From: Ostreococcus lucimarinus
Lineage: Eukaryota
NCBI GenBank assembly: GCA_000092065.1
Contig: CP000601.1
Strand: one strand, 5' to 3'
Length of the DNA: 64,000 nt
The notes under the pieces were generated by a model. The model had not been told where the DNA came from and made no database searches. It saw nothing but the letters and a program-made list of their open reading frames with translations. Within the stretch, counting starts at the first letter, position 1. Each line of letters opens with the position of its first letter. The position numbers and the translations under genes were made by a program. Of the stretch, positions 5,315 through 58,264 are shown piece after piece.

Positions 5315-8300
5315 ATGGTGACCGTGGTCGCGATCGGGGCGAGCGCGGCGCGCGGGATGGACGCGATGGGGAACGGAGAGGGGGCGCTGGGCGCGATTTG
5401 GACGACGGCGACGGCGGCGCTCGGGACGCTGCTGACGAGAGGGAGCTGGCGGACGAGCGCGACGGTCGGGACGTCGTGCGCGCTGCTCGCGGTGAATGGG
5501 GTGAATTTGTTTTTATTTTGCTCGTGGTGCACGCTGCAATTTCGGTGGATACACGAGTCGCACGCGGGCGCGGCGGCGACGTGCGAGCGTTTGATTTTCG
5601 CGCTGTGTCCGCCGACGACGACGACGATTCTGACGTGGGCGTTCGCGAGCGCGAGCGCGGGAGCTGAGAGAGCGGCGTTTTACGGCTCGGTCGTGTCGTT
5701 GATCACGCATCGGATGTTTTTGTTTCCGTGCGCGAGCGCGTGCGCGGCGGTGACGAAGACGAACGGGCCTCCGTCGGACAAGCGCTCGGCGTTGACCGAG
5801 AGCGACGCCGAGTACGCCACCGTGGCCACGCTCGGCTTACCCGTCGCGTTGTATTTATGGACGAACCTCGACACACTGTTCAAGTCCCTCGATCACGTCT
5901 TCGCGTGTGGGGCGTTGGTGACGGTCCCGGTGTTGTATTTAATAGCCGCCGGCACGGAGAAGTCGTTGTGGTGGCGCGCGCGCGGCGTCGACGTGGCGTC
6001 GAAAAGGATGGAAACCGCCGTGCTCCTCTTCGCACTCACTGGATTTGCGGTGAGCGTTGAAGGTGGAATAATATTTAGTGAATTTGCCGAGTACATCGAA
6101 ATCATGGCTCCTTTGAATTACATCATGGTGACGGTTTCCGTCCACAGCGCGCTGGCAGTTTTCGCCGCGTGCTACGCAAACGCCGTCGGCGACGGCGTCC
6201 CGACGGGTGCGGTGAAGGCGACGTTGGCTCTGTCTACGTCGACCGCAATTTGTGCTTTGGGTGCACCTCTGTGGATGATTCCGATCCCCATCGCCGGATC
6301 ATCGTCATTCGTCAAATATTATTACGAGGACCGAGAGCCGAAGGATTACGGCGTGTTTGCCGCGAGTTGCGTCGGATGCTTTTCGTGGTTTCTTTCGAAG
6401 AATTTCTGGTCACTCGATGTGCGCGTGGGAGCTTTCGACGTCAAACAATTGTGTGTCGCCATATTACTCCTCGCCGTGGCGGCTTTGGCTTTGCCAGCGG
6501 TGTTGAATACGAAAAGCGCGCGCGCGCCGACGGTTGGCGTCCTCGTCGTCTGTTACGTCTCGGCGCTCGCAACGATTGAACAAATCCTGAGTCAAGCGAC
6601 GCATGACGACGATTCTTTGATTTATCCACCATATTTGGTCATCGTCACTTCCATCAGCGGCTTCTTGGCGAGTCGAGGCCTCGTCATCAGCGGGAGAATC
6701 AGTCGCGAATTTGGCTGGGTGATGCAGAGCGTGTGCGGCGCAAAGCTCTCCATGCTCTTTGTTCGCGGTTTGAAGGAAATGTTCAGCGTCTTGGTGGTCG
6801 TGCTCGCCATCACCGCTCCGCACGCGATGTCACGGCGAATGACTCAATTATCTCCGGGCGCGAGCGTTGGTTATTGCGTCGCTTTGGTGTTCTCTTTGGT
6901 ATTCGCTCGGTTTGCGATGTTTGACGTTATATTTGAACTCTCGGGTCACCGACCGACGGACGCGACGCTCTTCGGTGGACTCCTCCTGATCACGGGGGCG
7001 AGCTTGGCGTCCGTGGTAACGCGACAAAGTTACGGTGATGACATGTTTAGCAAACGATTGATGATGCTCTTGAGTTTCTGTGGCGTCTTTCTCATCACCT
7101 TCCGACCGCCGATGCCTTGGAAGGGCGAGGTGGGCATGTGGTATGACGCCGAACACGTTCCCGACTCTGAAGAAGACGAAGCGAGAATGTACGGCGTGCG
7201 CGAGAACGCGCATCATGGATGGCCGAGCTGGTTGCTGATGTTAGCCGCGCTCACCGCGATATTCGCCGTCTCGTCTCCACGACAACAGACAAAATCAACG
7301 TCAACGATTCGAATCGCCTTAAGCGCCGTGTGCGGTGGGAGCGTTGGTTTATATATGGCGCTGGAATTCTTCGTCCAGCAAGTGGCGCTGACGGCACTAC
7401 TATTTGTCGCGTGTGCGCTGGTGGGAGTGTTCTTGTCTTTCACGTACAGCCCTTCGCCGAAGTCTTCGCGCTGGTTGCCTTACGTGTATTTATCGTTCGT
7501 CTCCGTTCTCGGCTTGGCGTACGTCACACAAATGGGTGGCTCAGACGAGACTGTGGACGACCATCAGGCGAGAATGGAAGGAAAATTCGGTGTCGTCGGC
7601 GTTTTCGCCGGGACTTCGCTGCAAATCGCGTTTGCTCTGAAGTTGAGAATCAAAACGAGCCTGGAGAGCGTGCAACATCGACGACGTCAAGGCGGTACTT
7701 CACCGTTCCTTCCCGCCACTGGTCGCAGTCGTCCGGAATATTTCCGCGGTGTCGCGAGCAGAAACGAGCACAGAGAACTCAAGGCAAAGGCGATCGCTTG
7801 GATGCCAATCATCGGGAACATCGCCACGCTCACGTCCTTTCTCGCGTGCGTGGTGCTGAGCGATGAGTTGGCCGATGGCTCCGCGTTTTCGGTCTTCGTC
7901 CTCGCGCCCATTCTGCTTCTTCTTCACCAAGACTCGGTGATATTTCCTATACTGGAAGACAGCCAACGATACGCTCCACCGCTCGCGATGATCGTGGGTA
8001 AGATGTGCTGGGACGCCGTCGCCGCCATCCTCGCCGGCCCGAACCGAGTTCACGTTCTCGCCGCGACCGCCTCCAAGTTGCCGTGGATGACGCTCAACGC
8101 GTTGAGTCTGCTCCTCGCTTCGGTGAATAGCATCAATTTGGTGCACTACCTCGCCACGAGCGTTCGCACGGACGGGATGACGCTCATCTTGACCGCCCCG
8201 CTCGCCGTCGTGGCGCCGTTTCTTTCAAAAATTCCCTCCGTGCGCGCGCTCGCCTTCACCAGTCTCATCGCCGTCGTCACCCAGCACACCCTCCAGCGTC

Positions 8301-27615: not shown

Positions 27616-27857
27616 TGTAACATTATACTATTTTTGTGTTGTCATCGCGTCGTTTTCGCTCCACTCTCTCCCCCCTCGACGACTTCATCGCGTCGTTTGT
27701 CGAGCACAGTCTCTAAAATCTCGTCCCGGTGCCGAGCGCGGTTCGCGAACCTCGACCGACGTCCCATCGCGAGGTCGTTAAAAATAATCGCGATCGGATT
27801 GCGGCGCGTGTTCGTCGTCATAACGCGTCGTCGTGCGTCGTCAGACTCGCCGTCGAC

Positions 27858-29621
27858 ATGGCTGATCAAGTCATCGTCATCGGCGGTGGTCTCGCGGGCC
27901 TGTCCGCGGCGCACACCGTCATCGAACACGGCGCGCGCGTCGTGTTGCTCGACAAATGTTCCTTCCTGGGCGGGAACAGCACGAAGGCGACGAGTGGGAT
28001 TAACGGAGCGTTGACGAAGACGCAGGCGCGGTTGAACATTCCCGACAGCGCTGATAAGTTTGAAGATGATATCATCAAGGGCGCGGCGGGCGTCGGGCAC
28101 ACCGAAGCGCCGGCACACACGGTGCCGCTCGCAAAGGTGCTGGCGCAAGGAAGCGGTTCGAGCGTGGATTGGTTGATGGAAAAGTTTAACCTTGACTTGT
28201 CCCTCGTCGCGCAGCTCGGTGGGCACTCGTTCCCGCGAACGCATCGAGGCAAAGAGCGGTTCCCAGGGTTCACGATCACGTACGCCCTGATGGAGGGGTT
28301 GGAGAAGATTATGGAGGAGACGAATGGGGAAATTGCGCGAATCGTGACCAAAGCCGAGGCAAAGCGGTTGCTAAAGGACGGAAGTGGTACCGTGATCGGG
28401 GTGGAATACGAGAAGGGTGGCGCTTTACATCAAGAGTACGGTCCAGTCGTCATCGCTACCGGTGGTTTCGGTGCGGATTACCAGTCAGACTCGTTGTTGA
28501 AAAAGTACCGACCCGACTTGCAGGCGCTGCCGACGACGAACGGTGACCACTGCACGGGGGATGGAATCAAGATGGCCTTGGCCGTCGGAGCGGATACGAT
28601 CGATATGGAGTCTGTGCAAGTGCATCCTACCGGATTAGTCAACCCTTCAGAGCCAGATTCCAAGGTGAAGTTCTTAGCCGCCGAGGCGCTTCGAGGCGTC
28701 GGAGGCATCCTCCTGGACGCAGACGGGAACAGATTCGCCGATGAGCTCGGTCGACGAGACTACGTCAGTGGTGAAATGAACAGAAACAAAGGGCCTTTCC
28801 GTTTGATTCTGAACGGCAAGGCTTCAAAGGAGATCGAATGGCACTGCAAGCATTACGTCGGGCGAGGCATCATGAAGCGTCACGATACGGGTGCCGAAGT
28901 TGCAAAAGAAATGGGCATCAGTCCACAAAAGCTCGCCGACACCTTTGCCAAGTACAACGAAGCCGCTCGAACGAAGAAGTGTCCGTTCGGTAAAAAGTTT
29001 TTCACCAACGCTCCGTTCGAAATGAATGATTTCTTTCACTCCGCCATCGTGTGCACCGTCGTGCACTACACCATGGGTGGACTCGCCATCAACACTGATT
29101 CGCAAATCGTCGGGTCGTCAGGACCGATTCCTGGTTTATACGGTGCGGGCGAGGTCGTTGGGGGTATTCACGGCCGTAACCGACTCGGTGGTAACTCTCT
29201 GTTGGATTGCGTCGTCTTTGGTCGCGTCGCGGGTGCCTCAGTTTCTCGACACCTCATGGCGACGGCTATCAAGGCGCTTAGATCTGGTCAATCCGTCGCT
29301 CTTAATCGCGTCGCTAACTTGAACGACAAGATCAACCCATCCATGAGCACGGCGTCCGCCGCGCCAGTGTCTAGCGGTGGCGGTGCTCGCGCTATCACCA
29401 TGGATGAAATCGCGAAGCACAACTCCGAGGGCGACCTCTGGGTCATCATCGAGGGCGCCGTTTACGATCTCACGACTTTCTTGCCCGATCATCCAGGTGG
29501 AAAGAAAGCGATCATGCTCTTCGCCGGAAAGGATGCCACTGAAGAGTTCAACATGCTCCACCCTCCGAACGTCTTGAAGAAATATCTCTCTCCAGACGCG
29601 AAGATTGGAACCGTCGCGTGA
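27858..29621 (+). CDS. Soluble FAD-dependent fumarate reductase (OSM1 / flavocytochrome-type) fused to a C-terminal cytochrome b5 domain.
   Basis: The FAD-binding motif VIVIGGGLAGLSAAHTVIEHGARVVLLDKCSFLGGNSTKATSGINGA and the FRD/SDH flavoprotein core. The C-terminal 80 aa (DLWVIIEGAVYDLTTFLPDHPGGKKAIMLFAGKDATEEFNMLHPPNV) is a canonical cyt b5 heme-binding domain. The ATG (MADQVIVIGGG) is at 27858. Confidence 0.85.
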   Translation: MADQVIVIGGGLAGLSAAHTVIEHGARVVLLDKCSFLGGNSTKATSGINGALTKTQARLNIPDSADKFEDDIIKGAAGVGHTEAPAHTVPLAKVLAQGSGSSVDWLMEKFNLDLSLVAQLGGHSFPRTHRGKERFPGFTITYALMEGLEKIMEETNGEIARIVTKAEAKRLLKDGSGTVIGVEYEKGGALHQEYGPVVIATGGFGADYQSDSLLKKYRPDLQALPTTNGDHCTGDGIKMALAVGADTIDMESVQVHPTGLVNPSEPDSKVKFLAAEALRGVGGILLDADGNRFADELGRRDYVSGEMNRNKGPFRLILNGKASKEIEWHCKHYVGRGIMKRHDTGAEVAKEMGISPQKLADTFAKYNEAARTKKCPFGKKFFTNAPFEMNDFFHSAIVCTVVHYTMGGLAINTDSQIVGSSGPIPGLYGAGEVVGGIHGRNRLGGNSLLDCVVFGRVAGASVSRHLMATAIKALRSGQSVALNRVANLNDKINPSMSTASAAPVSSGGGARAITMDEIAKHNSEGDLWVIIEGAVYDLTTFLPDHPGGKKAIMLFAGKDATEEFNMLHPPNVLKKYLSPDAKIGTVA

Positions 29622-29833: not shown

Positions 29834-31741
29834 CTACACTTGAGGTCGCGTTTGAACGATGTAGAGCTGCCCATCTTCAGATATCGCGCCCTCAATGTCT
29901 TGAGGAGACCCACAAAGTGTCTCAATCTCTAGTGCAACCTTGGAGATGGTCGCTAAAAGCTTTTGTCGCTTGGTTTCGTCCGTAATGAGGCTGTCGGTGG
30001 AGTAGTCGACGTTTTTCAACGTTGCCTCCTCCATGGTGATGCTATCGTACAAGCCCGCACCGGCGAACCCTTCCAGGTCTTCGCCGTTACTATCGGATCG
30101 GAAAATAAGTGAATCTTGCTCCATGAAAAGTCCTTTTGACTTCGAAGGGAACCCGACGACGGTCGGATTATCCAAATTGCTCTTGGATGTCTTGAATGAC
30201 AATGCTCGACCAGAAAAGTTACCGACGAGCGCTTCGCCCAGACCACACACAAGCTCACCGTAAATTTCGCTCTTGTCGTTGTTTTGTGGATTCACTGTGT
30301 GCAGTACGAATGCGTATCGCGCACGAACGACGGGCTGACAAAGCACAGCCATGGACAAATCGGCGTGATTCAGCCCTGCCTTTTTGCAACTCAAAACGGC
30401 TCGCTCGTTGTACTTGCTTGCCCATACGCCAAGAATCGTCTTCCATGCCTTTTGACCTTGAGCGCTCGTCACGAGATCTCCCGGCCAACCGAGTGATTCG
30501 GCTTCGAAGGCGACTTTCAAACTTTTCGACAGGTCGGCCGTCGGTTTTAAAGTGGCGATACATGCCTTGACTTCCGCAATGAGTGCTTTGAAGCCAACGC
30601 CGTCTGTGGAGTCGTACGCTTCAAGTTGTTTGACTAACTCTGCAATTTGTCTCTTTGCGCCTGCATTCTCAGGGACATCAAGAACTGCATCGAACGTACC
30701 AAAAGGCATCGCAACGGACGGCGGTAACTTTATGAGGTTTGAGACTCGACCGCGAAGGAGTTGCAAGTTTCGAGATTTGCCGCCGACAAGCTCTGGGGTA
30801 AACTCTGATGACGTGGCGACAAATTTTCCTTGAAACGGACGTTTGATGATCGATATGTCACTCGAAACGGAATCGCTCGACGATGTTGCTATGACCTCCG
30901 CGTCGGTACCGATGATGCCGTCGACAACATCGAATTGCAAATCGTCGCCCTGCGCAGACGGCTTGAGTTGCACGGATTTCCCGGTCATGGCTTTCATCTG
31001 TTCTAGAACATTCACGTCAAACAAAGTAGCGAAAAGAACCTTTTCGTTACGGGCGCGAACGGCGCAGTGAGACAGCACATCTGGCATATCAGGAGTAACG
31101 ATCGCGACCACGCCAACCGGAATGTCCTCTTCGCCACCAACGCGGTCGGCAATAATGACAGTCGGTTGAGAATACTTGACATTTTGCACATCGGCGAGGG
31201 ATGCGACCGAAACAATCACGCCACTACACTCGGCGTTACTGACGATTTGCCAGCTGCCCATGTTCGCAACATTACGAATAACTGGGTCGAGAACTCTGAG
31301 CATTTGAGAAAGTGGCGCCGCTGCAGTTCCACGGATGATTTCTTCCGAGAACAGGTCGAGCACGTGTCCATCCACACCGAGCTTGTTTCCCATGCTCTGT
31401 GCCGTCGGCTGAAGTGCGTCAATATAGCGCTGAGAAATTTCGCCAAGCGAGTTTTGCAGTCGATCGCACACCGCTTTTGCCTGCAAAGCCCAATCTCCTT
31501 GGCGTCTCGCTGCTTCAAGCACATTTTGCCACTCTTTCAGGCAAATGCGCAACTCGTGGTTGCCGCTTGCAGACATGCAAAGATTCTCGAGGACGAGGCT
31601 CATGATTCTCAAAACTTCGTAAGGAGCTCGAGTAGGCAAAGATTCAAGAGATCCTTCGATGACCGAACGCGCCGCACCTTCTAACGCAAGGTTGCGCAGA
31701 CCTTCGCAACCTTCGCGACCTTCGCCGAAACGCTCGAGCAC
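29834..31741 (-). CDS. Alpha-glucan water dikinase-like protein (GWD/PWD family). It carries the catalytic phosphohistidine domain and the C-terminal nucleotide-binding domain only.
   Basis: The phosphohistidine motif DVLSHCAVRARNEKVLFATLFD (potato GWD has DVLSHVSVRARNGKVCFATCFD). The C-terminal PPDK_N-like domain ends ISEDGQLYIVQTRPQV. The track start at 31741 is GTG, the first ATG is at 31603, and an in-frame stop lies 39 nt upstream. Only 166 nt separate it from the next gene on the same strand, so there is no room for CBM or N-terminal repeat regions. Confidence 0.8.
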   Translation of the reverse strand: MLERFGEGREGCEGLRNLALEGAARSVIEGSLESLPTRAPYEVLRIMSLVLENLCMSASGNHELRICLKEWQNVLEAARRQGDWALQAKAVCDRLQNSLGEISQRYIDALQPTAQSMGNKLGVDGHVLDLFSEEIIRGTAAAPLSQMLRVLDPVIRNVANMGSWQIVSNAECSGVIVSVASLADVQNVKYSQPTVIIADRVGGEEDIPVGVVAIVTPDMPDVLSHCAVRARNEKVLFATLFDVNVLEQMKAMTGKSVQLKPSAQGDDLQFDVVDGIIGTDAEVIATSSSDSVSSDISIIKRPFQGKFVATSSEFTPELVGGKSRNLQLLRGRVSNLIKLPPSVAMPFGTFDAVLDVPENAGAKRQIAELVKQLEAYDSTDGVGFKALIAEVKACIATLKPTADLSKSLKVAFEAESLGWPGDLVTSAQGQKAWKTILGVWASKYNERAVLSCKKAGLNHADLSMAVLCQPVVRARYAFVLHTVNPQNNDKSEIYGELVCGLGEALVGNFSGRALSFKTSKSNLDNPTVVGFPSKSKGLFMEQDSLIFRSDSNGEDLEGFAGAGLYDSITMEEATLKNVDYSTDSLITDETKRQKLLATISKVALEIETLCGSPQDIEGAISEDGQLYIVQTRPQV

Positions 31742-52037: not shown

Positions 52038-53008
52038 TCACTTAGAGTGCTTGGCGCTGTTGCAAATCGTCACGAAAGCCTCGCCGATCAAAGACGCGCC
52101 GCCGACGAGAAAGCCGTCAATGTCCTCTTTCTGAGCTAATTCGTCGCAGTTGCCGGCGTTGACGCTGCCGCCGTACTGAATGCGAATCTTCGACGCAATC
52201 GCCGGAGAAATATTATCCGCGCACCACTTGCGAATGCCCGCGTGCACTTCTTGCGCTTGGTCCGGCGTCGCGACCTTGCCGGTACCGATCGCCCAAACGG
52301 GCTCGTACGCGATGACGATGTTTTCCCAGTCCGCCGCGGTCACGACGTCGTTCACCGCCTTGAGTTGCGCGCGGCAAATATCCAGAGTCGTGCCCGCTTC
52401 GCGCTGTTCCAACGTCTCACCGATGCACAAAGCAACCTTCAATCCCTTGCTCAAGGCATATTTGGTCTTCTCCCCGACGAACTCGTTCGTCTCGCCGCAG
52501 AGCGCGCGGCGTTCGCTGTGCCCGAGAATCACCCACGGAATGTCGGCGTCGGCGAGCATATCCGCGCTCACCTCACCCGTGAACGCCCCACCCGCGGAGA
52601 CCCAACAGTTCTGCGCGGCGACGGCGTAGTTTTTGTTGTTGAGCTCCTTTTGCACTCGAGGAATGAAGACGAACGGAGGCGCGACGTAGACGTCAACGTC
52701 GGCGTCGATTTTCCCAGAGTTTAGTTCCTTCACGAGCGACTTGACGGACTCCGCCGTGCCGTTGCACTTCCAGTTCCCGCCGACGATAAATTTACCCGTG
52801 CCCGCATTCACGACGACGCTTCGTCGCTGCGCTGCGGCGTGCACCTGCGCGAAGAATTCCAGAAAACCGCGTCGTCAGTCTCGCGCGTCGCTTTGGATAA
52901 CACGCCCCGATCGCGCCGTCGCGCGCCGTCGAGGTCGACGCGACGTCTCCCCTCGTCGGCGCGCGCGTGATCCCTCGCGACCGTCGGTGTCGACGCCATC
53001 GTCGCCAT
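52038..53008 (-). CDS. TPI: Triosephosphate isomerase. Catalytic exon 52038..52844. A probable transit-peptide exon at 52904..53008, with a 59-nt intron.
   Basis: [12 protein letters not shown] ... VILGHSERR ... [17 protein letters not shown] ... GGSVN are the TPI motifs. The catalytic ORF starts at GTG with no upstream in-frame ATG, and it is directly preceded by the acceptor ttctggaattcttcgcgcag. An ATG-initiated ORF 105 nt upstream ([35 protein letters not shown]) ends at a GT in phase 0. Confidence 0.85.
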
Positions 53009-53123
53009 CGACGCCTCGCGGTCCCCATCGTCGCGCGCATCCCGATCCGTCGCGTTCGATGGCGCGCCGATGGCGCCGATGGGGCGCCGATGGGGACACC
53101 GCCCCGTCGTCGTCCTCGGGCGC

Positions 53124-53210
53124 CGTTCGAACGCGTTCGCGCGCGTCGGCGTCGCGTCGATCGATCGTTCGCACCCTTTGCGATCGCGCCGTCGCCTTCA
53201 CGGCGCACGA
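53124..53210. repeat. Copy A of an exact 86-87 bp direct repeat (ttcgaacgcgttcgcgcgcgtcggcgtcgcgtcgatcgatcgttcgcaccctttgcgatcgcgccgtcgccttcacggcgcacga).
   Basis: The same 28-aa junk peptide VRREGDGAIAKGANDRSTRRRRARTRSN appears in two different minus-strand track ORFs (52792..54009 and 53756..54247). The DNA is identical over about 86 bp. Confidence 0.65.
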
Positions 53211-54009
53211 GGTTACTGTTGATGAGGTACATTGCCGTCACCCCAAGAAGGCCACCGACAGCAATCGAGCCCATCGCGTCGTACATCGGACTCCCCGTCA
53301 CTTCGCACGCGATGAGCGCCGTACCCGCGATGCCACAACCCAACACCGCGGCAGCATCTTCTGCGAGCACGGCCACGCTGGTGGGATCTTTACCAGATTT
53401 GATAAATTCCCTCAGCGTCATTCCTTGCGCCTTGGCGTTGTCGCGCAACGACTCGTACGCCACCTTTAACGAAAATCCTTCCAACAACGCCGACGCGCCC
53501 AACACCGCGATCCCAATACGTATGTTTTCAGACGGCATCGGGTCCATCAACCCGTGCATCCCGTGCATCACGCTAAACCCAGCACCGAGAAAGAAAATTC
53601 CCACCGCGGAAATCAACGAATACACGAACCAACAAGTGCGAGTGAGGGCTTCGACGCGAGAGGCGATGGTTTTGGACTCTCGCGAACGCTCGGCGGCTTG
53701 GCGCCCGGCGGCGCGCGCGAACGTTTCGTAATCTTGTTCGGCTTGAGAGATGAACTTACGACTCGCGGCCTCGGACTCGACTCTGAACTCGTTCACGAGT
53801 GACTCGATGCGCTCGCGCGCGATTCGTCGATTGCGTTCGGCGAGAGATTGCATCATTTGCTGGAATCCAACCATGTCGTAACGCGTCGAACGTTGACGCA
53901 CCGTCTCGCGCGTGTAGTACGCTCTCGCCGCGTCGTTCCACGCCCCCGACGTTCGCCCGGGCACGAGAACCACGGACCAGAGTAAAACCTTCGTAATCAC
54001 CGATCGCAC
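53206..54009 (-). CDS. Membrane protein homologous to the TM3-TM6 core of SLC30A9/ZnT9-type cation diffusion facilitators. N-terminal coiled-coil. The TM1-2 region and the C-terminal cytoplasmic domain are not found, and the 3-prime end is unresolved.
   Basis: SLISAVGIFFLGAGFSVMHGMHGLMDP and LRDNAKAQGMTLREFIKSGKDPTSVAVLAEDAAAVLGCGIAGTALIACEVTGSPMYDAMGSIAVGGLLGVTAMYLINSN parallel the human ZnT9 blocks SLISGVGIFMMGAGLSWYHGVMGLLHP and DPSTNVILLEDTAAVLGV..., as far as I recall them. After ...YLINSNL the track ORF runs through the 86-bp repeat into R-rich junk that overlaps TPI exon 1. Confidence 0.5.
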
Positions 54010-54132
54010 GCGCGCGCGTCGTCAGTCTCGCGTCGAGCCCGGTCGATCGCGCCGCGACACGCGCCTTCGCGATGATTCCGCGCGCGCCGCATCGCGTCGA
54101 CGAAATCGCGCACCTCGAGCGCGCAGATGAAG

Positions 54133-54219
54133 CGTTCGAACGCGTTCGCGCGCGTCGGCGTCGCGTCGATCGATCGTTCGCACCCTTTGCGATCGCGCCG
54201 TCGCCTTCACGGCGCACGA
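54133..54219. repeat. Copy B of the 86-87 bp direct repeat, about 1009 bp from copy A, in the spacer between the ZnT9-like gene and the SPP gene.
   Basis: As for copy A. Confidence 0.65.
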
Positions 54220-54349
54220 CGTCGTCGTCGTCGCCGACGGCGCGCACGTCACGCTAAACATCGCTCGCCGCACGCGTCGTCGCGAAGTGCCGGCGCGCGG
54301 TCGCCGAGGGCGATTTCGTTTTTTCGCGAACCATCGCGCGTCGATCGAC

Positions 54350-54410
54350 GGACGTCGATCGATCGATCGATCGATCGAACGATCGACCGATCGATCGATC
54401 GATCGACCGC
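54350..54410. repeat. (GATC/CGAT)n-rich microsatellite in the promoter spacer.
   Basis: tcgatcgatcgatcgatcgaacgatcgaccgatcgatcgatcgatcgacc. It shows up as the SIDRSIDRS peptides in the track. Confidence 0.5.
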
Positions 54411-54597
54411 GCGCCAAGCCCCCTCGCGCCCGCGCGCGCGCCCGCCCAGGGTCCAGCGGTCCAGGGGCGGCGTCGAATCAATCGTCCGCCCTTCCGCAGT
54501 GCGCGGCGTGACCCCGGCGCCGGCGTCGCGCGCGCTTCGACGACGACGGTCCCGACGATCGGACGACCCGACGAACGCGCGCGCGCACGGCCGGATC

Positions 54598-57500
54598 GAC
54601 ATGGCGTCGCGCGTCTCCGCGAGCGGGCGCGCGAGCGCGAACGCGCGAGGAATCGTGACGCCGCATCGTCGGCGTGGACGGACGGCGACGACGACGAAAC
54701 GGGCGACGCGAGGGCGACGGTGCGCGCGCGTCGTGCGCGCGAACGCGTCGTCGACGAACGGTGGGCCGGGGCGATGGGATCGCGCGATGCAGACGCTGTC
54801 ATCCGTCGCCGATCCCGCGGCGACGACGGCGATGCTGGACGAGCCTTTGACGCCGCACGAAGAGATTCGTCGAGGAACGCTCGCGAATGGGTTGAAGTAC
54901 GTCATCTTACCGAACAAAGTTCCCGAGGGGAGATTTGAGGCGCACTTGGAGATGCACGTCGGGTCCGTGGACGAACGCGAAGACGAGCAAGGGCTGGCGC
55001 ACCTCGTCGAGCACGTCACGTTTTTGGGTTCTCGAAAACGAGATCAGTGGCTCGGGAGCGGTACGCGAGGGAACGCGTACACGGATTTCCACCACACCGT
55101 GTTCCACATCCACGCACCGACGACGAACAAGGATGGACATTACATGCCGCCCAACGTGCTGGACATTCTCTACGACGTCGCGTTTGCGCCGCAACTCTTG
55201 GACACTCGCGTGGCGAAGGAGAAGAAAGCCGTGCTCGCCGAGGCTCAAATGATGAACACGATCGAGTACAGAGTGGACTGTCAGCTTCTAGAGCATTTGC
55301 ACTGGGACAACCTCTTGGGCACGCGATTTCCGATCGGTAAGCTCGATCAGGTGGAAGCGTGGCCGGCGCAGGCGGTGCGAGACTTTCACGCGCGCTGGTA
55401 TTTCCCAGCCAACGCCACGCTCTACGTCGTGGGCGACTTCGATGCCTCCGTGGACGAAGTCGAGGGTATGATTTCCGCCGCGTTCGACGAAGCGGCGCCC
55501 GCGGAAGGCGCGGAAGAAGCCGAGTCTCCTCTCAAACGTCACGCGGTGCGTCCTCCGGTGAAGCACGCGTACGGGGCGCCGTCGTACGAGCTCGACGAAA
55601 TTCAACGCTCGAACGACGAGGCGAAGGCGTCGGGCAAAGACGACCCGTTCTTGCCTTTCGTCGCCCCCGAGGGTAAAGTGTCCATGTTCCAGCACGAACA
55701 CTTGTCCAACGCGAGTTTCAACATATTTTCAAAATTGGCCGTCAAGCCGCTCGAAAAGATGGGCGACTTGCACCGGACGATTTTGCAGCGCATTGTGTTG
55801 TTGGTGTTGCAGAGCCGCATTCAGGCGAGATACGCGGAAACTAATGCGGATTACAAACGCATTGAACTCGATCATAGCGACAGCGCGAGAGAGGGGTGTT
55901 GCGTCAGCACCGTCACCGTGACGTGCGAGCCGAGAGAGTACGAATTCGCCTTGCAAGTCGCCGTCGAGGAATCTCGACGATTGCAAAAGTTTGGATTGAC
56001 GCCGAGCGAGCTCGATCGTTTTAAGGCGGCGATGTTGAGAGATTCTGAACAGCTCGCGCAGCAGGCGGGATGCGTGCCGAGCCTCGAAAATCTCGACTTT
56101 GTCATGGAGCAGGACGCCTGCGGACACGTCGTCATGGACCAGGTCGCGGGTCACGAGGCCTTGGTGCGCATGTCTGATTACATCACGCTCGAGGCGTGCA
56201 ACGGCGCGTGCGATGAGCTTTTAGGTTTTATCGGTGAGTACGGCGTGGAGAACAATCGCAAACCGAACAGCGGTAAGTGCACCGCCATCGTCGCGTGCGT
56301 CCCAGCGACGATGACGAACGTCGACGGCGAGACGGTGCCGTTCGATATCACGCCCGAGCGCATAGAACAAGTTTTGGCGGCGGATTACGGTGAAATCACA
56401 GAGCCCGAGGATATCTTTGTGCCGGAGGTGTTGATTGCGGATGACGAAATCAACGCCCTCATCGAGCAAACGGCGCCGACGTTTACCGAGGCGACGTATC
56501 ACGAGCCGACCGGCGTGTACCAGCGCACGCTGAGTAACGGTATTCGCGTCAACTACAAGGTGCTCGACGCCGAGCCTGGGAGCGCGTTCTTACGACTCGT
56601 CGTCCCGGGTGGTCGTTCGGTTGAGAGCCCGAACATCGGGCCCGGCGGAATCGGTTCGTCGGCGGTCGGTTTGCGCACCGTGCAAGAGGCTGGCGACGTC
56701 GGCGAATGGTCGCGCAAGCAAATCGAGCTCTTGACGATGCAACACTTGCTCGTGTACGACGTCGAGCCCGAGGTCGAGTACATGTTTTTGGATTCCGCGT
56801 TCGCCACGGATGGAGGCTTGAGGACTATTCTCGAGATCATGCACCTCACGCTGACGAAGCCGACGTGGGACGAGCAAGCGCTCGAGCGCGTCAAGGACAT
56901 TTACCGCATGTTTCAGATTAACACGAACAAGAACATCGAGTTGCTCACGCATGACACCGTCAACGCCGTGATTTACGAAGACCGAAGAATCATGGACCCG
57001 AACAAGGAGGCACTCCAGGCGCTGACGCTGGATGGCGTTCGAGACATGATCGAAGCTCAATTCGCGAGCGGGGCTTTGGAACTCAACATCGTCGGCGACA
57101 TCATCCCCGAAGAAGTCGACGAAATGGTTCTCGCGTTTATGGGATCGATTCAGACCAAGCCCGCGCCGCCGTTGCCGCAAGTGCCCCCGCTGAAATTGAA
57201 AGAGGTGCCAAAGGATGATCCGGTGCGCGCGCAGCGGTTGTGGTTGAAGGACAGCGACGAAAGAGCGTGCGCGGTGGCCGCCGGACCGGGGCCATCCATG
57301 TGGGCGCCGATGACGAGTCTGTACTCTGAAATTCCGAGCTTTGTCAATCAAGACGCGTACACGCCGGAACAGATTGCAGCCTTGCGCGATCCCGTGAACG
57401 AGGTGGCGTCGGCGAAGGGGAACCCATTCGCACAGCAGTCTGCGCGACGCGCGAATTCTTTGGCGACGTATTGCGCGGGGATGATGCTCGCAGAAGTTAT

Positions 57501-58098
57501 CGGTGGTAGATTGTTCACAACGGTGCGCGACGCGTTGGGTCTGACGTACGACTGCAACTTTACAATGTCGTTTGGATTACAAAACAACGACGCGACGACG
57601 TACAGGTTGTTGGTGACGTCGACGCCGGAAAAAATTGATGAAGCTCTCAACGCCGGCGTGCGCGTGTTGCGTGGATTTCAGATGCAGCGCGTGAGCCAAC
57701 GCGAGGTCGATCGCGCGCGTTTAACGCTGTTGAGTCGTCATGAGATGGATTTGAAGACGAACAACTACTGGGCCGATTTGATGCAGTGCACCAACACTCC
57801 AGATTTAGCGCCGCTGAAGAAGATTCAGTGCGTCGCTGATTTACCCCTCATGTACGACGCGATGACCGTGGACGATCTTCAAGAAGTTTACGATCGTCTC
57901 GGCTTGAGCGAAGGCGAGATCTTCACCAGCGTGACGATCGCCGGGCAGACAGAGCCGCCTCCATTCCTGTCGAAGAAGGACGTCGACGCCGCCGCGCTCG
58001 CCGCCCAGACGCTGACCGCCGCGCTTGGTGGCATCAACATCGCCGAAGCGATCAAGAGATTGAAGAAAGAGCAGTCTCCGTCCGCGAGCGCGGAGTAG
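54598..58098 (+). CDS. SPP: Stromal processing peptidase (chloroplast transit-peptide peptidase; M16 insulinase/pitrilysin family).
   Basis: The inverted zinc motif in LANGLKYVILPNKVPEGRFEAHLEMHVGSVDEREDEQGLAHLVEHVTFLGSRKR, co-linear with plant SPP. A long four-domain M16 architecture of about 1170 aa. The R/S/T-rich presequence begins MASRVSASGRASANARG at 54598, and the track start at 54127 lies in spacer repeats. Confidence 0.85.
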   Translation, partial: DMASRVSASGRASANARGIVTPHRRRGRTATTTKRATRGRRCARVVRANASSTNGGPGRWDRAMQTLSSVADPAATTAMLDEPLTPHEEIRRGTLANGLKYVILPNKVPEGRFEAHLEMHVGSVDEREDEQGLAHLVEHVTFLGSRKRDQWLGSGTRGNAYTDFHHTVFHIHAPTTNKDGHYMPPNVLDILYDVAFAPQLLDTRVAKEKKAVLAEAQMMNTIEYRVDCQLLEHLHWDNLLGTRFPIGKLDQVEAWPAQAVRDFHARWYFPANATLYVVGDFDASVDEVEGMISAAFDEAAPAEGAEEAESPLKRHAVRPPVKHAYGAPSYELDEIQRSNDEAKASGKDDPFLPFVAPEGKVSMFQHEHLSNASFNIFSKLAVKPLEKMGDLHRTILQRIVLLVLQSRIQARYAETNADYKRIELDHSDSAREGCCVSTVTVTCEPREYEFALQVAVEESRRLQKFGLTPSELDRFKAAMLRDSEQLAQQAGCVPSLENLDFVMEQDACGHVVMDQVAGHEALVRMSDYITLEACNGACDELLGFIGEYGVENNRKPNSGKCTAIVACVPATMTNVDGETVPFDITPERIEQVLAADYGEITEPEDIFVPEVLIADDEINALIEQTAPTFTEATYHEPTGVYQRTLSNGIRVNYKVLDAEPGSAFLRLVVPGGRSVESPNIGPGGIGSSAVGLRTVQEAGDVGEWSRKQIELLTMQHLLVYDVEPEVEYMFLDSAFATDGGLRTILEIMHLTLTKPTWDEQALERVKDIYRMFQINTNKNIELLTHDTVNAVIYEDRRIMDPNKEALQALTLDGVRDMIEAQFASGALELNIVGDIIPEEVDEMVLAFMGSIQTKPAPPLPQVPPLKLKEVPKDDPVRAQRLWLKDSDERACAVAAGPGPSMWAPMTSLYSEIPSFVNQDAYTPEQIAALRDPVNEVASAKGNPFAQQSARRANSLATYCAGMMLAEVIGGRLFTTVRDALGLTYDCNFTMSFGLQNNDATTYRLLVTSTPEKIDEALNAGVRVLRGFQMQRVSQREVDRARLTLLSRHEMDLKTNNYWADLMQCTNTPDLAPLKKIQCVADLPLMYDAMTVDDLQEVYDRLGLSEGEIFTSVTIAGQTEPPPFLSKKDVDAAALAAQTLTAALGGINIAEAIKRLKKEQSPSASAE

Positions 58099-58264
58099 TT
58101 GCTGATTAGATGGCTATTTTAATGTAAACGCTTTCTCTCACGACGGACGGCTCGCCGTAGAGTAAAAAAGTCAACCCAGTCTCCTCGCACAAACTCGGCG
58201 TGGTCACACCGCAACGCGCGCGCACGCGTCGTCGCAGACGAACCAACTAATACTCAGACACGTC

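Follow-up and report, generated by a model that had tools for sequence, protein, structure and literature searches.

An apparent captured-DNA insertion of three gene fragments between TPI and SPP in Ostreococcus lucimarinus

A composite insertion in the TPI-SPP spacer

The DNA analysed here, hereafter called the window, is a stretch of 64,000 nucleotides from contig CP000601.1 of the Ostreococcus lucimarinus assembly GCA_000092065.1. It contains two divergently transcribed genes, one for triosephosphate isomerase (TPI) and one for a stromal-processing-peptidase-like (SPP) M16 peptidase. As judged from sequence comparisons, the window carries a private insertion of 922 bp (53211-54132) in the spacer between these genes, together with an 87-bp target duplication. 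The insert appears to consist of three gene pieces from elsewhere in the O. lucimarinus genome, placed end to end between TPI and SPP, and all of its bases but seven could be traced to donors. The locus would be a further natural example of a type of event already known, the complex captured-DNA insertion. A limited search of the literature on insertion and end joining in Ostreococcus, which is weak evidence, returned no earlier description of it. The repeat copies, the pieces of the insert and the open reading frame (ORF) that runs through them are as follows.

53124..53210, no strand assigned: copy 1 of the 87-nt target-site duplication, an exact repeat at which the left-flank alignments of related contigs stop
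53211..53630, minus strand: fragment C, 420 nt, a piece of a ZnT9/SLC30A9-type cation diffusion facilitator (CDF) gene, with 100% nucleotide identity to positions 5999-6418 of contig L033
53631..53637, no strand assigned: filler of 7 nt (AACAAGT on the plus strand) between fragments C and B, which agrees with neither parent at the junction
53638..53879, minus strand: fragment B, 242 nt, with 100% nucleotide identity to positions 3731-3972 of contig L001 (the P0012 gene)
53880..54132, minus strand: fragment A, a genomic piece of 253 nt from a gene of the P0053/P0054 small-protein family, compared with positions 546-799 of contig L020
54133..54219, no strand assigned: copy 2 of the 87-nt target-site duplication, an exact repeat at which the right-flank alignments of related contigs begin
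52792..54009, minus strand: chimeric ORF of 405 aa with a GTG start, taken from the list of ORFs

An initial annotation of the region described a truncated ZnT9-like gene interrupted by an exact 86-bp direct repeat. The two copies of the repeat are indeed identical, and their length is 87 nt. They start 1009 nt apart on the plus strand, and the bases next to them differ between the two. When up to three mismatches were allowed, these were the only two copies of the 87-nt sequence in the window, and none was found in 100 dinucleotide-preserving shuffles. Copy 1 has stayed on the side of TPI and lies 116 nt upstream of the putative start codon of that gene (ATG at 53008). Copy 2 lies in the part of the spacer toward the SPP gene, where it had been placed previously, and remains with that side, 382 nt upstream of the SPP start codon (ATG at 54601).

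The site is empty in related contigs

As a comparison set, 30 loci that include both TPI and SPP were fetched via the neighbouring genes. They lie on 28 distinct contigs from metagenomes or other assemblies. The TPI-SPP site is empty in all 28 contigs, which contain a single copy of the 87-nt sequence and nothing inserted. At every locus, the left alignment stops at window position 53210-53213 and the right alignment begins at 54133, which is 89-90 nt earlier in the contig. Since each related contig contains one 87-nt copy and no insert, the 922-bp insertion appears to be private to the window. As the initial annotation proposed, the repeat is recent and non-random, and it marks an insertion or a recombination event.

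The flanks of the empty site are closely similar to those in the window. On the TPI side, the identity to the window is about 99-100% in 27 of the 28 contigs. The remaining contig, L027, represents a more distant relative, with 92.6% identity on the TPI side and 82.8% on the other side, and its site is also empty. On the SPP side, where the alignment passes through a variable (CGAT)n array, the identity ranges from 89.6 to 99.9%. A 40-nt core of the repeat was found exactly once in 29 of the 30 loci, the exception being L027. The spacer between TPI and SPP is about 583 nt long in the relatives.

The palindromic (CGAT)n / CGATCGAACG array lies in the TPI-SPP spacer, at 54340-54410 of the window, and no other stretch varies as much among wild contigs that are otherwise 99-100% identical. 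The arrays differ in length, and one contig lacks the sequence that corresponds to 54349-54536.

Donor genes and junctions

Fragment C corresponds to codons 221-359, which encode transmembrane helices TM3-TM6, of a ZnT9 parent of 486 aa. In L033, this parent gene is intact and intronless, and its product covers positions 3-198 of the Cation_efflux profile and contains the C-terminal domain. The parent gene in L002-5 and L033 is surrounded by LRR, IQ and Exo_endo_phos genes and not by TPI or SPP. The closest ZnT9 relative in a search of the protein collection with the ORF was 86% identical in amino acid sequence and 76% in nucleotide sequence. A foreign or ancient origin of the ZnT9 piece was considered and then dropped once a scan of metagenome DNA gave the 100% identical parent in L033.

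Fragment B is derived from the intronless P0012 gene, which encodes a protein of 323 aa, and covers aa 160-239 of it (100% identity in tblastn). No domain was found in the 323-aa protein in a Pfam search. Fragment A differs from the sequence in L020 only by a 1-nt deletion, which is 9 nt away from the joint (identity of 99.6% in 254 aligned columns), and its parent adjoins the chromosome 1 gene ABO93849.1. The fragment contains 19 nt of an exon (54132-54114), a whole GT-AG intron of 125 nt (54113-53989), an exon of 87 nt (53988-53902) and, from the start of the following intron, 22 nt (53901-53880). The spliced metatranscriptome contigs L006-8 align only to the exon parts. Because fragment A keeps an intron, the insert should be derived from DNA and not from a processed retrocopy. 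The latter was rejected on the grounds that fragment A contains the whole 125-nt intron plus 22 nt of the following one and that there is no A-tract. All donors are intact in wild contigs, namely L033 for fragment C, L001 for fragment B and L020/L021 for fragment A.

Comparison of the joints with both parents revealed 0 nt of microhomology between copy 1 and fragment C, between fragments B and A, between fragment A and copy 2, and on both sides of the filler. The insert is not bounded by terminal inverted repeats and no transposon sequence was found in it. Its two ends (GGTTACTG... and ...GATGAAG) are internal donor sequence. The initial annotation had raised the possibility of an element resembling a miniature inverted-repeat transposable element (MITE), which does not agree with the lack of terminal inverted repeats, the single copy and the derivation of all bases but the filler from donors. 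More generally, a transposable element or MITE was rejected because there are no element termini, the 87-nt unit occurs once per related locus, and the mosaic junctions were found nowhere else among the searched sequences. Viral origin or carriage was also rejected, as the viral contigs contained neither a relative of the ZnT9 piece nor any of the mosaic junctions.

Another source of the pieces would be a reverse transcriptase that produced cDNA by template jumping over three mRNAs or pre-mRNAs, with subsequent insertion of the cDNA at a break. This would account for the mRNA sense orientation of all three pieces, and yeast is known to incorporate retrotransposon cDNA at breaks (PMC11372161). 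However, sense orientation alone has a 1-in-4 chance of arising, fragment A holds a complete intron and part of a second one, there is no poly(A) tract, and every piece is internal to its gene. We consider an origin by cDNA capture very improbable.

The donor genes (L001 3256-4227; L020/L021; L033 ~5340-6801) have no CCE9901 protein from NCBI in their 90% clusters, although their neighbours have one, and the clade-A ZnT9 is absent altogether from the protein collection searched. Possible explanations are a gap in the annotation from 2007, an incomplete collection, or damage to the donors in this strain.

The chimeric reading frame and the ZnT9 parent

Read from its GTG start, which falls within the intron of fragment A, the 405-aa ORF passes through intron, exon and intron sequence of fragment A, then through fragment B, the filler, fragment C and repeat copy 1, and ends in the 5' region of TPI. 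Searches of the protein collection gave three sets of relatives that do not overlap. Residues ~7-37 match a family of small proteins of 157-231 aa (P0053, P0054, P0055), residues 46-125 are 100% identical to aa 160-239 of P0012, and residues 126-267 are similar to ZnT9 proteins with lengths of 420-490 aa. The remaining parts of the three matched proteins are encoded nowhere in the window. The separate sets of relatives and the absence of the rest of the parents from the window therefore identify the ORF as a chimera of three unrelated genes. The exact 405-aa product is absent from public assemblies and protein records, and a search of PDB sequences with the ORF gave no meaningful match.

In the Pfam search, the Cation_efflux domain matched only aa 128-267 of the ORF (E 2.2e-10), corresponding to positions 68-194 of the 198 in the profile. 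This bears out the earlier description of a similarity that is restricted to TM3-TM6 of ZnT9, without TM1-2 and the C-terminal domain. Also as described, the ZnT9-like stretch stops at ...AMYLINSN, at base 53211, beside copy 1 of the repeat, which the frame then enters. The parent ZnT9 reads RLLLLGRSLG...HYVDIETN past that point. Alignment with ZnT9 relatives, which had been suggested as a means to locate the end of the homology, places it at 53211, where the 100% identical parent in L033 continues. When judged as a functional CDF/ZnT9 protein, the ORF has an incomplete six-helix Cation_efflux domain, no C-terminal domain and neither a start nor a stop of its own. Nor does it have a conserved position, as the TPI-SPP spacer is empty in the 28 contigs. 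The 405-aa ORF is an accidental in-frame read-through and not a gene.

These data bear on the proposal that a resident ZnT9 gene, truncated or incorrectly modelled, has been broken by a MITE-like, intronic or recombination repeat and has exons elsewhere. The significant Cation_efflux match and the open frame speak in its favour. It is refuted by the empty site in the 28 contigs and by the full-length, intronless ZnT9 at another locus. Furthermore, the upstream part of the ORF comes from two unrelated genes, and the repeat is native spacer that occurs once per relative. We regard the proposal as practically untenable. The roles of gene and repeat are reversed in it, since the ZnT9 piece is what has been inserted and the repeat is the native sequence. 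An intron at the position of the repeat is contradicted by the continuous, intronless parent and by the intergenic nature of the repeat. No last exons are absent from the model and no gene is nested with exon 1 of TPI, as a complete and intronless ZnT9 gene of 486 aa is located at another locus.

A candidate mechanism for the insertion

The composition of the insert, the empty state of the site, the donor genes and the bluntness of the joints are shown by the data. A staggered break, a fill-in step, the action of end-joining enzymes and a source of fragments are inferred. We think it reasonably probable that the insertion arose when loose pieces of DNA were captured by end joining at a staggered break with filled-in overhangs, in an event that is private to the strain and very recent. 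The process would have started with a staggered double-strand break in the divergent promoter spacer of TPI and SPP, with nicks on opposite strands 87 nt apart. Both of the 87-nt overhangs would then have been filled in, so that each end retained one copy. Loose double-stranded fragments from three unrelated and distant genes, 253, 242 and 420 bp long and either copied from these genes or released from them, would have been blunt-ligated between the ends by an NHEJ-type pathway (NHEJ, non-homologous end joining), with the addition of seven untemplated nucleotides at one joint. The features that mark captured DNA at the sequence level were all found, namely an empty site in close relatives, intact donor copies elsewhere, and joints that lack homology and contain filler. 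Folding of the 87-nt target was considered as a cause of the breakage, and its predicted DNA fold was no better than that of shuffled sequences (z = -1.19).

Several observations weigh against end-joining capture. A stagger of 87 nt is long for a spontaneous break. Fragments A, B and C are all in sense orientation and in one shared frame, for which the chance under random ligation is about 1/36. We find this mildly unexpected and give it little weight, since the ORF is what drew attention to the feature in the first place. The long ORF is a by-product of pieces that happen to share sense and frame in a G+C-rich sequence with few stop codons. In addition, no independent carrier of any of the mosaic junctions was found in 97 fetched loci, the protein collection or the viral contigs, and the physical reality of the mosaic depends on one assembly.

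The absence of the mosaic from independent data sets is also what an assembly, cloning or finishing artefact would produce, for example a chimeric clone or a mis-joined gap closure that placed O. lucimarinus reads from elsewhere in a spacer that is hard to sequence. Other features agree with an artefact as well. The fragments are 100% identical to their donors, in-vitro ligation of sheared and end-repaired DNA results in blunt joints without microhomology, and the spacer is G+C-rich and contains the palindromic array at 54340-54410. However, a precise 87-nt duplication with both flanks in order and orientation would require the ligation of five fragments in one clone, of which two are overlapping neighbours. 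Moreover, the genome was finished and the locus exists in two near-identical copies, so that conflicting reads would presumably have been inspected, which counts against an artefact. Although we consider this explanation quite improbable, the site is flagged as worth checking in the reference assembly.

Comparison with known insertion systems

The proposed capture of loose fragments by end joining resembles events described in other organisms. In yeast, fragments of the nuclear genome are captured at breaks by Lig4-dependent NHEJ, and some of the events involve several donors (PMC11372161). As in the window, the captured pieces are tens to hundreds of bp long and come from distant nuclear loci, sometimes from several donors (PMC11372161; Yu et al. 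2018 Nature, as cited there), and the end-joining joints show little or no homology and occasional extra nucleotides. The yeast events differ in that the HO cut at which they were recovered had been induced, mainly in cells that were Dna2-deficient or in stationary phase. The insertion in O. lucimarinus would instead be spontaneous and fixed in an algal strain, with somewhat longer pieces (242-420 bp) and an 87-bp target duplication.

Two algal systems show similar features. In transformants of the sister species O. tauri, the vector insertions lie between directly duplicated target sequences (518 bp in line T3) and are accompanied by short extra inserts of unknown or viral origin, a pattern that was attributed to NHEJ-like repair (PMC8002553). 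Direct target duplications and extra sequence are thus shared with the locus studied here. However, the main insert in O. tauri is an introduced plasmid, whereas the window contains three endogenous gene fragments, in an untransformed strain and without foreign DNA. The cassettes in Chlamydomonas mutant libraries are accompanied by co-inserted 'junk' pieces of genomic DNA, most of them <320-500 bp in size and some reaching 1 kb (10.1101/464859). This represents another green alga in which short pieces from unrelated loci are ligated at insertion sites. The Chlamydomonas insertions were obtained by electroporation, the fragments probably came from lysed cells, and the target duplications are usually <30 bp, in contrast to the natural event and the 87-bp duplication seen here.

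The duplication itself can be compared with the repair of staggered breaks. Fill-in of complementary overhangs, with NHEJ as the next step, results in tandem duplications (PMC8355091). A study of natural insertions in rice reported tandem duplications as well as donors at ectopic sites (Vaughn & Bennetzen 2014, according to the summary in PMC7407515). In these cases (PMC8355091; PMC7407515 for the summary of the rice data), as in the window, the sequence between the nicks is duplicated. The duplication is usually directly tandem or contains a short filler from nearby, whereas 922 bp from three distant donors separate the two copies here. Pack-MULEs and Helitrons also form mosaics of several gene pieces, sometimes with chimeric ORFs. 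The present insert, which apart from the filler is entirely donor-derived, differs from them in having no transposon termini, no terminal inverted repeats and no characteristic short target duplication. A Pack-MULE or Helitron was rejected here because such termini and such a short target duplication are lacking and the insert is single-copy.

The result removes a false gene, since the locus has no truncated paralogue of ZnT9 and the real ZnT9 gene is complete at another position. It also provides a cleanly resolved natural case, in an untransformed marine picoeukaryote, in which several distant fragments appear to have been ligated into a break together with a filled-in target duplication. 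Most other examples of such a repair outcome come from induced breaks, from transformants and from cancer genomes. The complex captured-DNA insertions that it resembles have been described in yeast, in plant and algal transformants and in cancer genomes.

Neighbouring genes and the chromosome 21 context

The genes on either side of the insertion, and a second feature that is private to the window, are as follows.

52038..53008, minus strand: TPI, the left neighbour of the insertion (Pfam TIM, E 1.9e-92)
54601..58098, plus strand: SPP-like M16 peptidase gene, the right neighbour of the insertion (an ORF; Peptidase_M16 and M16_C annotations in related contigs)
31700..31726, no strand assigned: synteny break private to the window, with the junction at 31714/31715; in five chr9-type wild contigs, the part that is collinear with the window begins at 31715 and lies to the right of it

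The structure of the TPI gene, as read from the sequence, includes a putative exon 1 at 53008-52904, a GT-AG intron of 59 nt and exon 2 at 52844-52038. In the wild contigs, prokaryote-style gene callers split TPI into products of 66 aa and 257/268 aa.

ORFs in the window are identical to the CCE9901 proteins ABO97964.1, ABO97965.1/ABP01228.1 and ABO97973.1/ABP01221.1. Many of the ORFs have such paired accessions (ABO979xx, ABP012xx), and the region should therefore be present twice in the CCE9901 genome. Chromosome 21 of O. lucimarinus CCE9901 consists of regions duplicated from chromosomes 9 and 13 that are fused to each other (PMC2367439). With increasing window coordinate, the ABP accession numbers rise and the ABO numbers fall. 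The private synteny break and this opposite order of accessions together suggest that the window represents chromosome 21, including its fusion junction. The window is thus most likely chromosome 21 of CCE9901, and the junction at 31714/31715 is probably the point of fusion between the sequences from chromosomes 13 and 9. As chromosome 21 is a duplicate, a second copy of TPI and SPP should be located on chromosome 9. Because of the target duplication, both genes retain their own proximal upstream sequence, 202 nt in the case of TPI and 468 nt in that of SPP. Given the retained proximal sequences and the second copies expected on chromosome 9, the event may have been tolerable to the cell.

Two genes on opposite sides are truncated by the break at 31714/31715, one of them glucan-water-dikinase-like and the other ALG11-like. 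To the left of the break are a flavocytochrome gene (27729-29621) and the N-terminally truncated glucan-water-dikinase-like gene (29834-31741, minus strand), while on the chromosome 9 side just the last ~155 nt of the ALG11-like gene are left. The left-hand sequence of the five chr9-type contigs is not present in the window. For the left parent, a single contig was obtained (L097), which is 75-81% identical. The joint contains three tandem ACCTTCGCN units (31700-08, 31709-17 and 31718-26), compared with one in the chr9-type contigs, which suggests microhomology or templated end joining.

This context is relevant for a different explanation of the mosaic, replicative template switching during the copying of the chromosome 9-derived segment of chromosome 21, as in fork stalling and template switching (FoSTeS), microhomology-mediated break-induced replication (MMBIR) or a chromoanasynthesis-like process. 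The nascent strand would have departed after 53210, copied 420, 242 and 253 nt in turn at three distant loci and then rejoined its original template at a site 87 nt further back, which would duplicate these 87 nt. Template switching yields copies, and chromosome 21 itself is also made of duplicated sequences from chromosomes 9 and 13 (PMC2367439). The donors appear intact in the wild contigs. The insertion is located 21.5 kb from the private junction at 31714/31715. A return slightly upstream would also give a flanking duplication without a long staggered break. However, template switching normally leaves at least 2 nt of microhomology at most joints. The 0 nt observed at all joints, although not an absolute criterion, and the 7-nt untemplated filler at one of them are difficult to reconcile with it. 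Furthermore, the reiterated ACCTTCGCN units are a different signature, and a common origin of the insertion and the fusion junction is not indicated. Overall, we consider template switching rather unlikely.

A more far-reaching scenario is that the three-donor insertion and the junction between chromosomes 13 and 9 are footprints of one burst of breakage and repair that made the neo-chromosome 21 of a free-living haploid picoalga. In the same scenario, the A-B-C chimera, a soluble helical segment fused to four transporter helices and located behind half of a strong bidirectional promoter, could be transcribed and be a newborn chimeric gene. We regard this combination as highly improbable. The location on the apparent chromosome 21 may bear on how a young duplicated chromosome formed and how fast it degenerates. 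The locus would become of greater interest if the donors were deleted in the strain, if more such inserts were present on chromosome 21, or if the chimera were expressed.

Two other differences between the window and the wild contigs were observed to the right of the insertion. At window position 58146, in the SPP-PCI spacer, the wild contigs L017 and L018 have ~160 extra bases relative to the window and the other contigs. The gene table of L089 shows the same wider SPP-PCI spacing, probably due to the same extra bases, and the difference looks like an indel polymorphism. The wild contigs also differ in gene content beyond window position ~62900, which corresponds to position ~14500 of the L022-L031 locus, downstream of a gene with similarity to MSS51_C. 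The diverging genes encode an ABC2 transporter, a TPT/pyruvyl transferase, an aspartic protease or an HA-domain protein, and many of the contigs end within less than 10 kb. This region looks like a variable subtelomeric part of chromosome 9.

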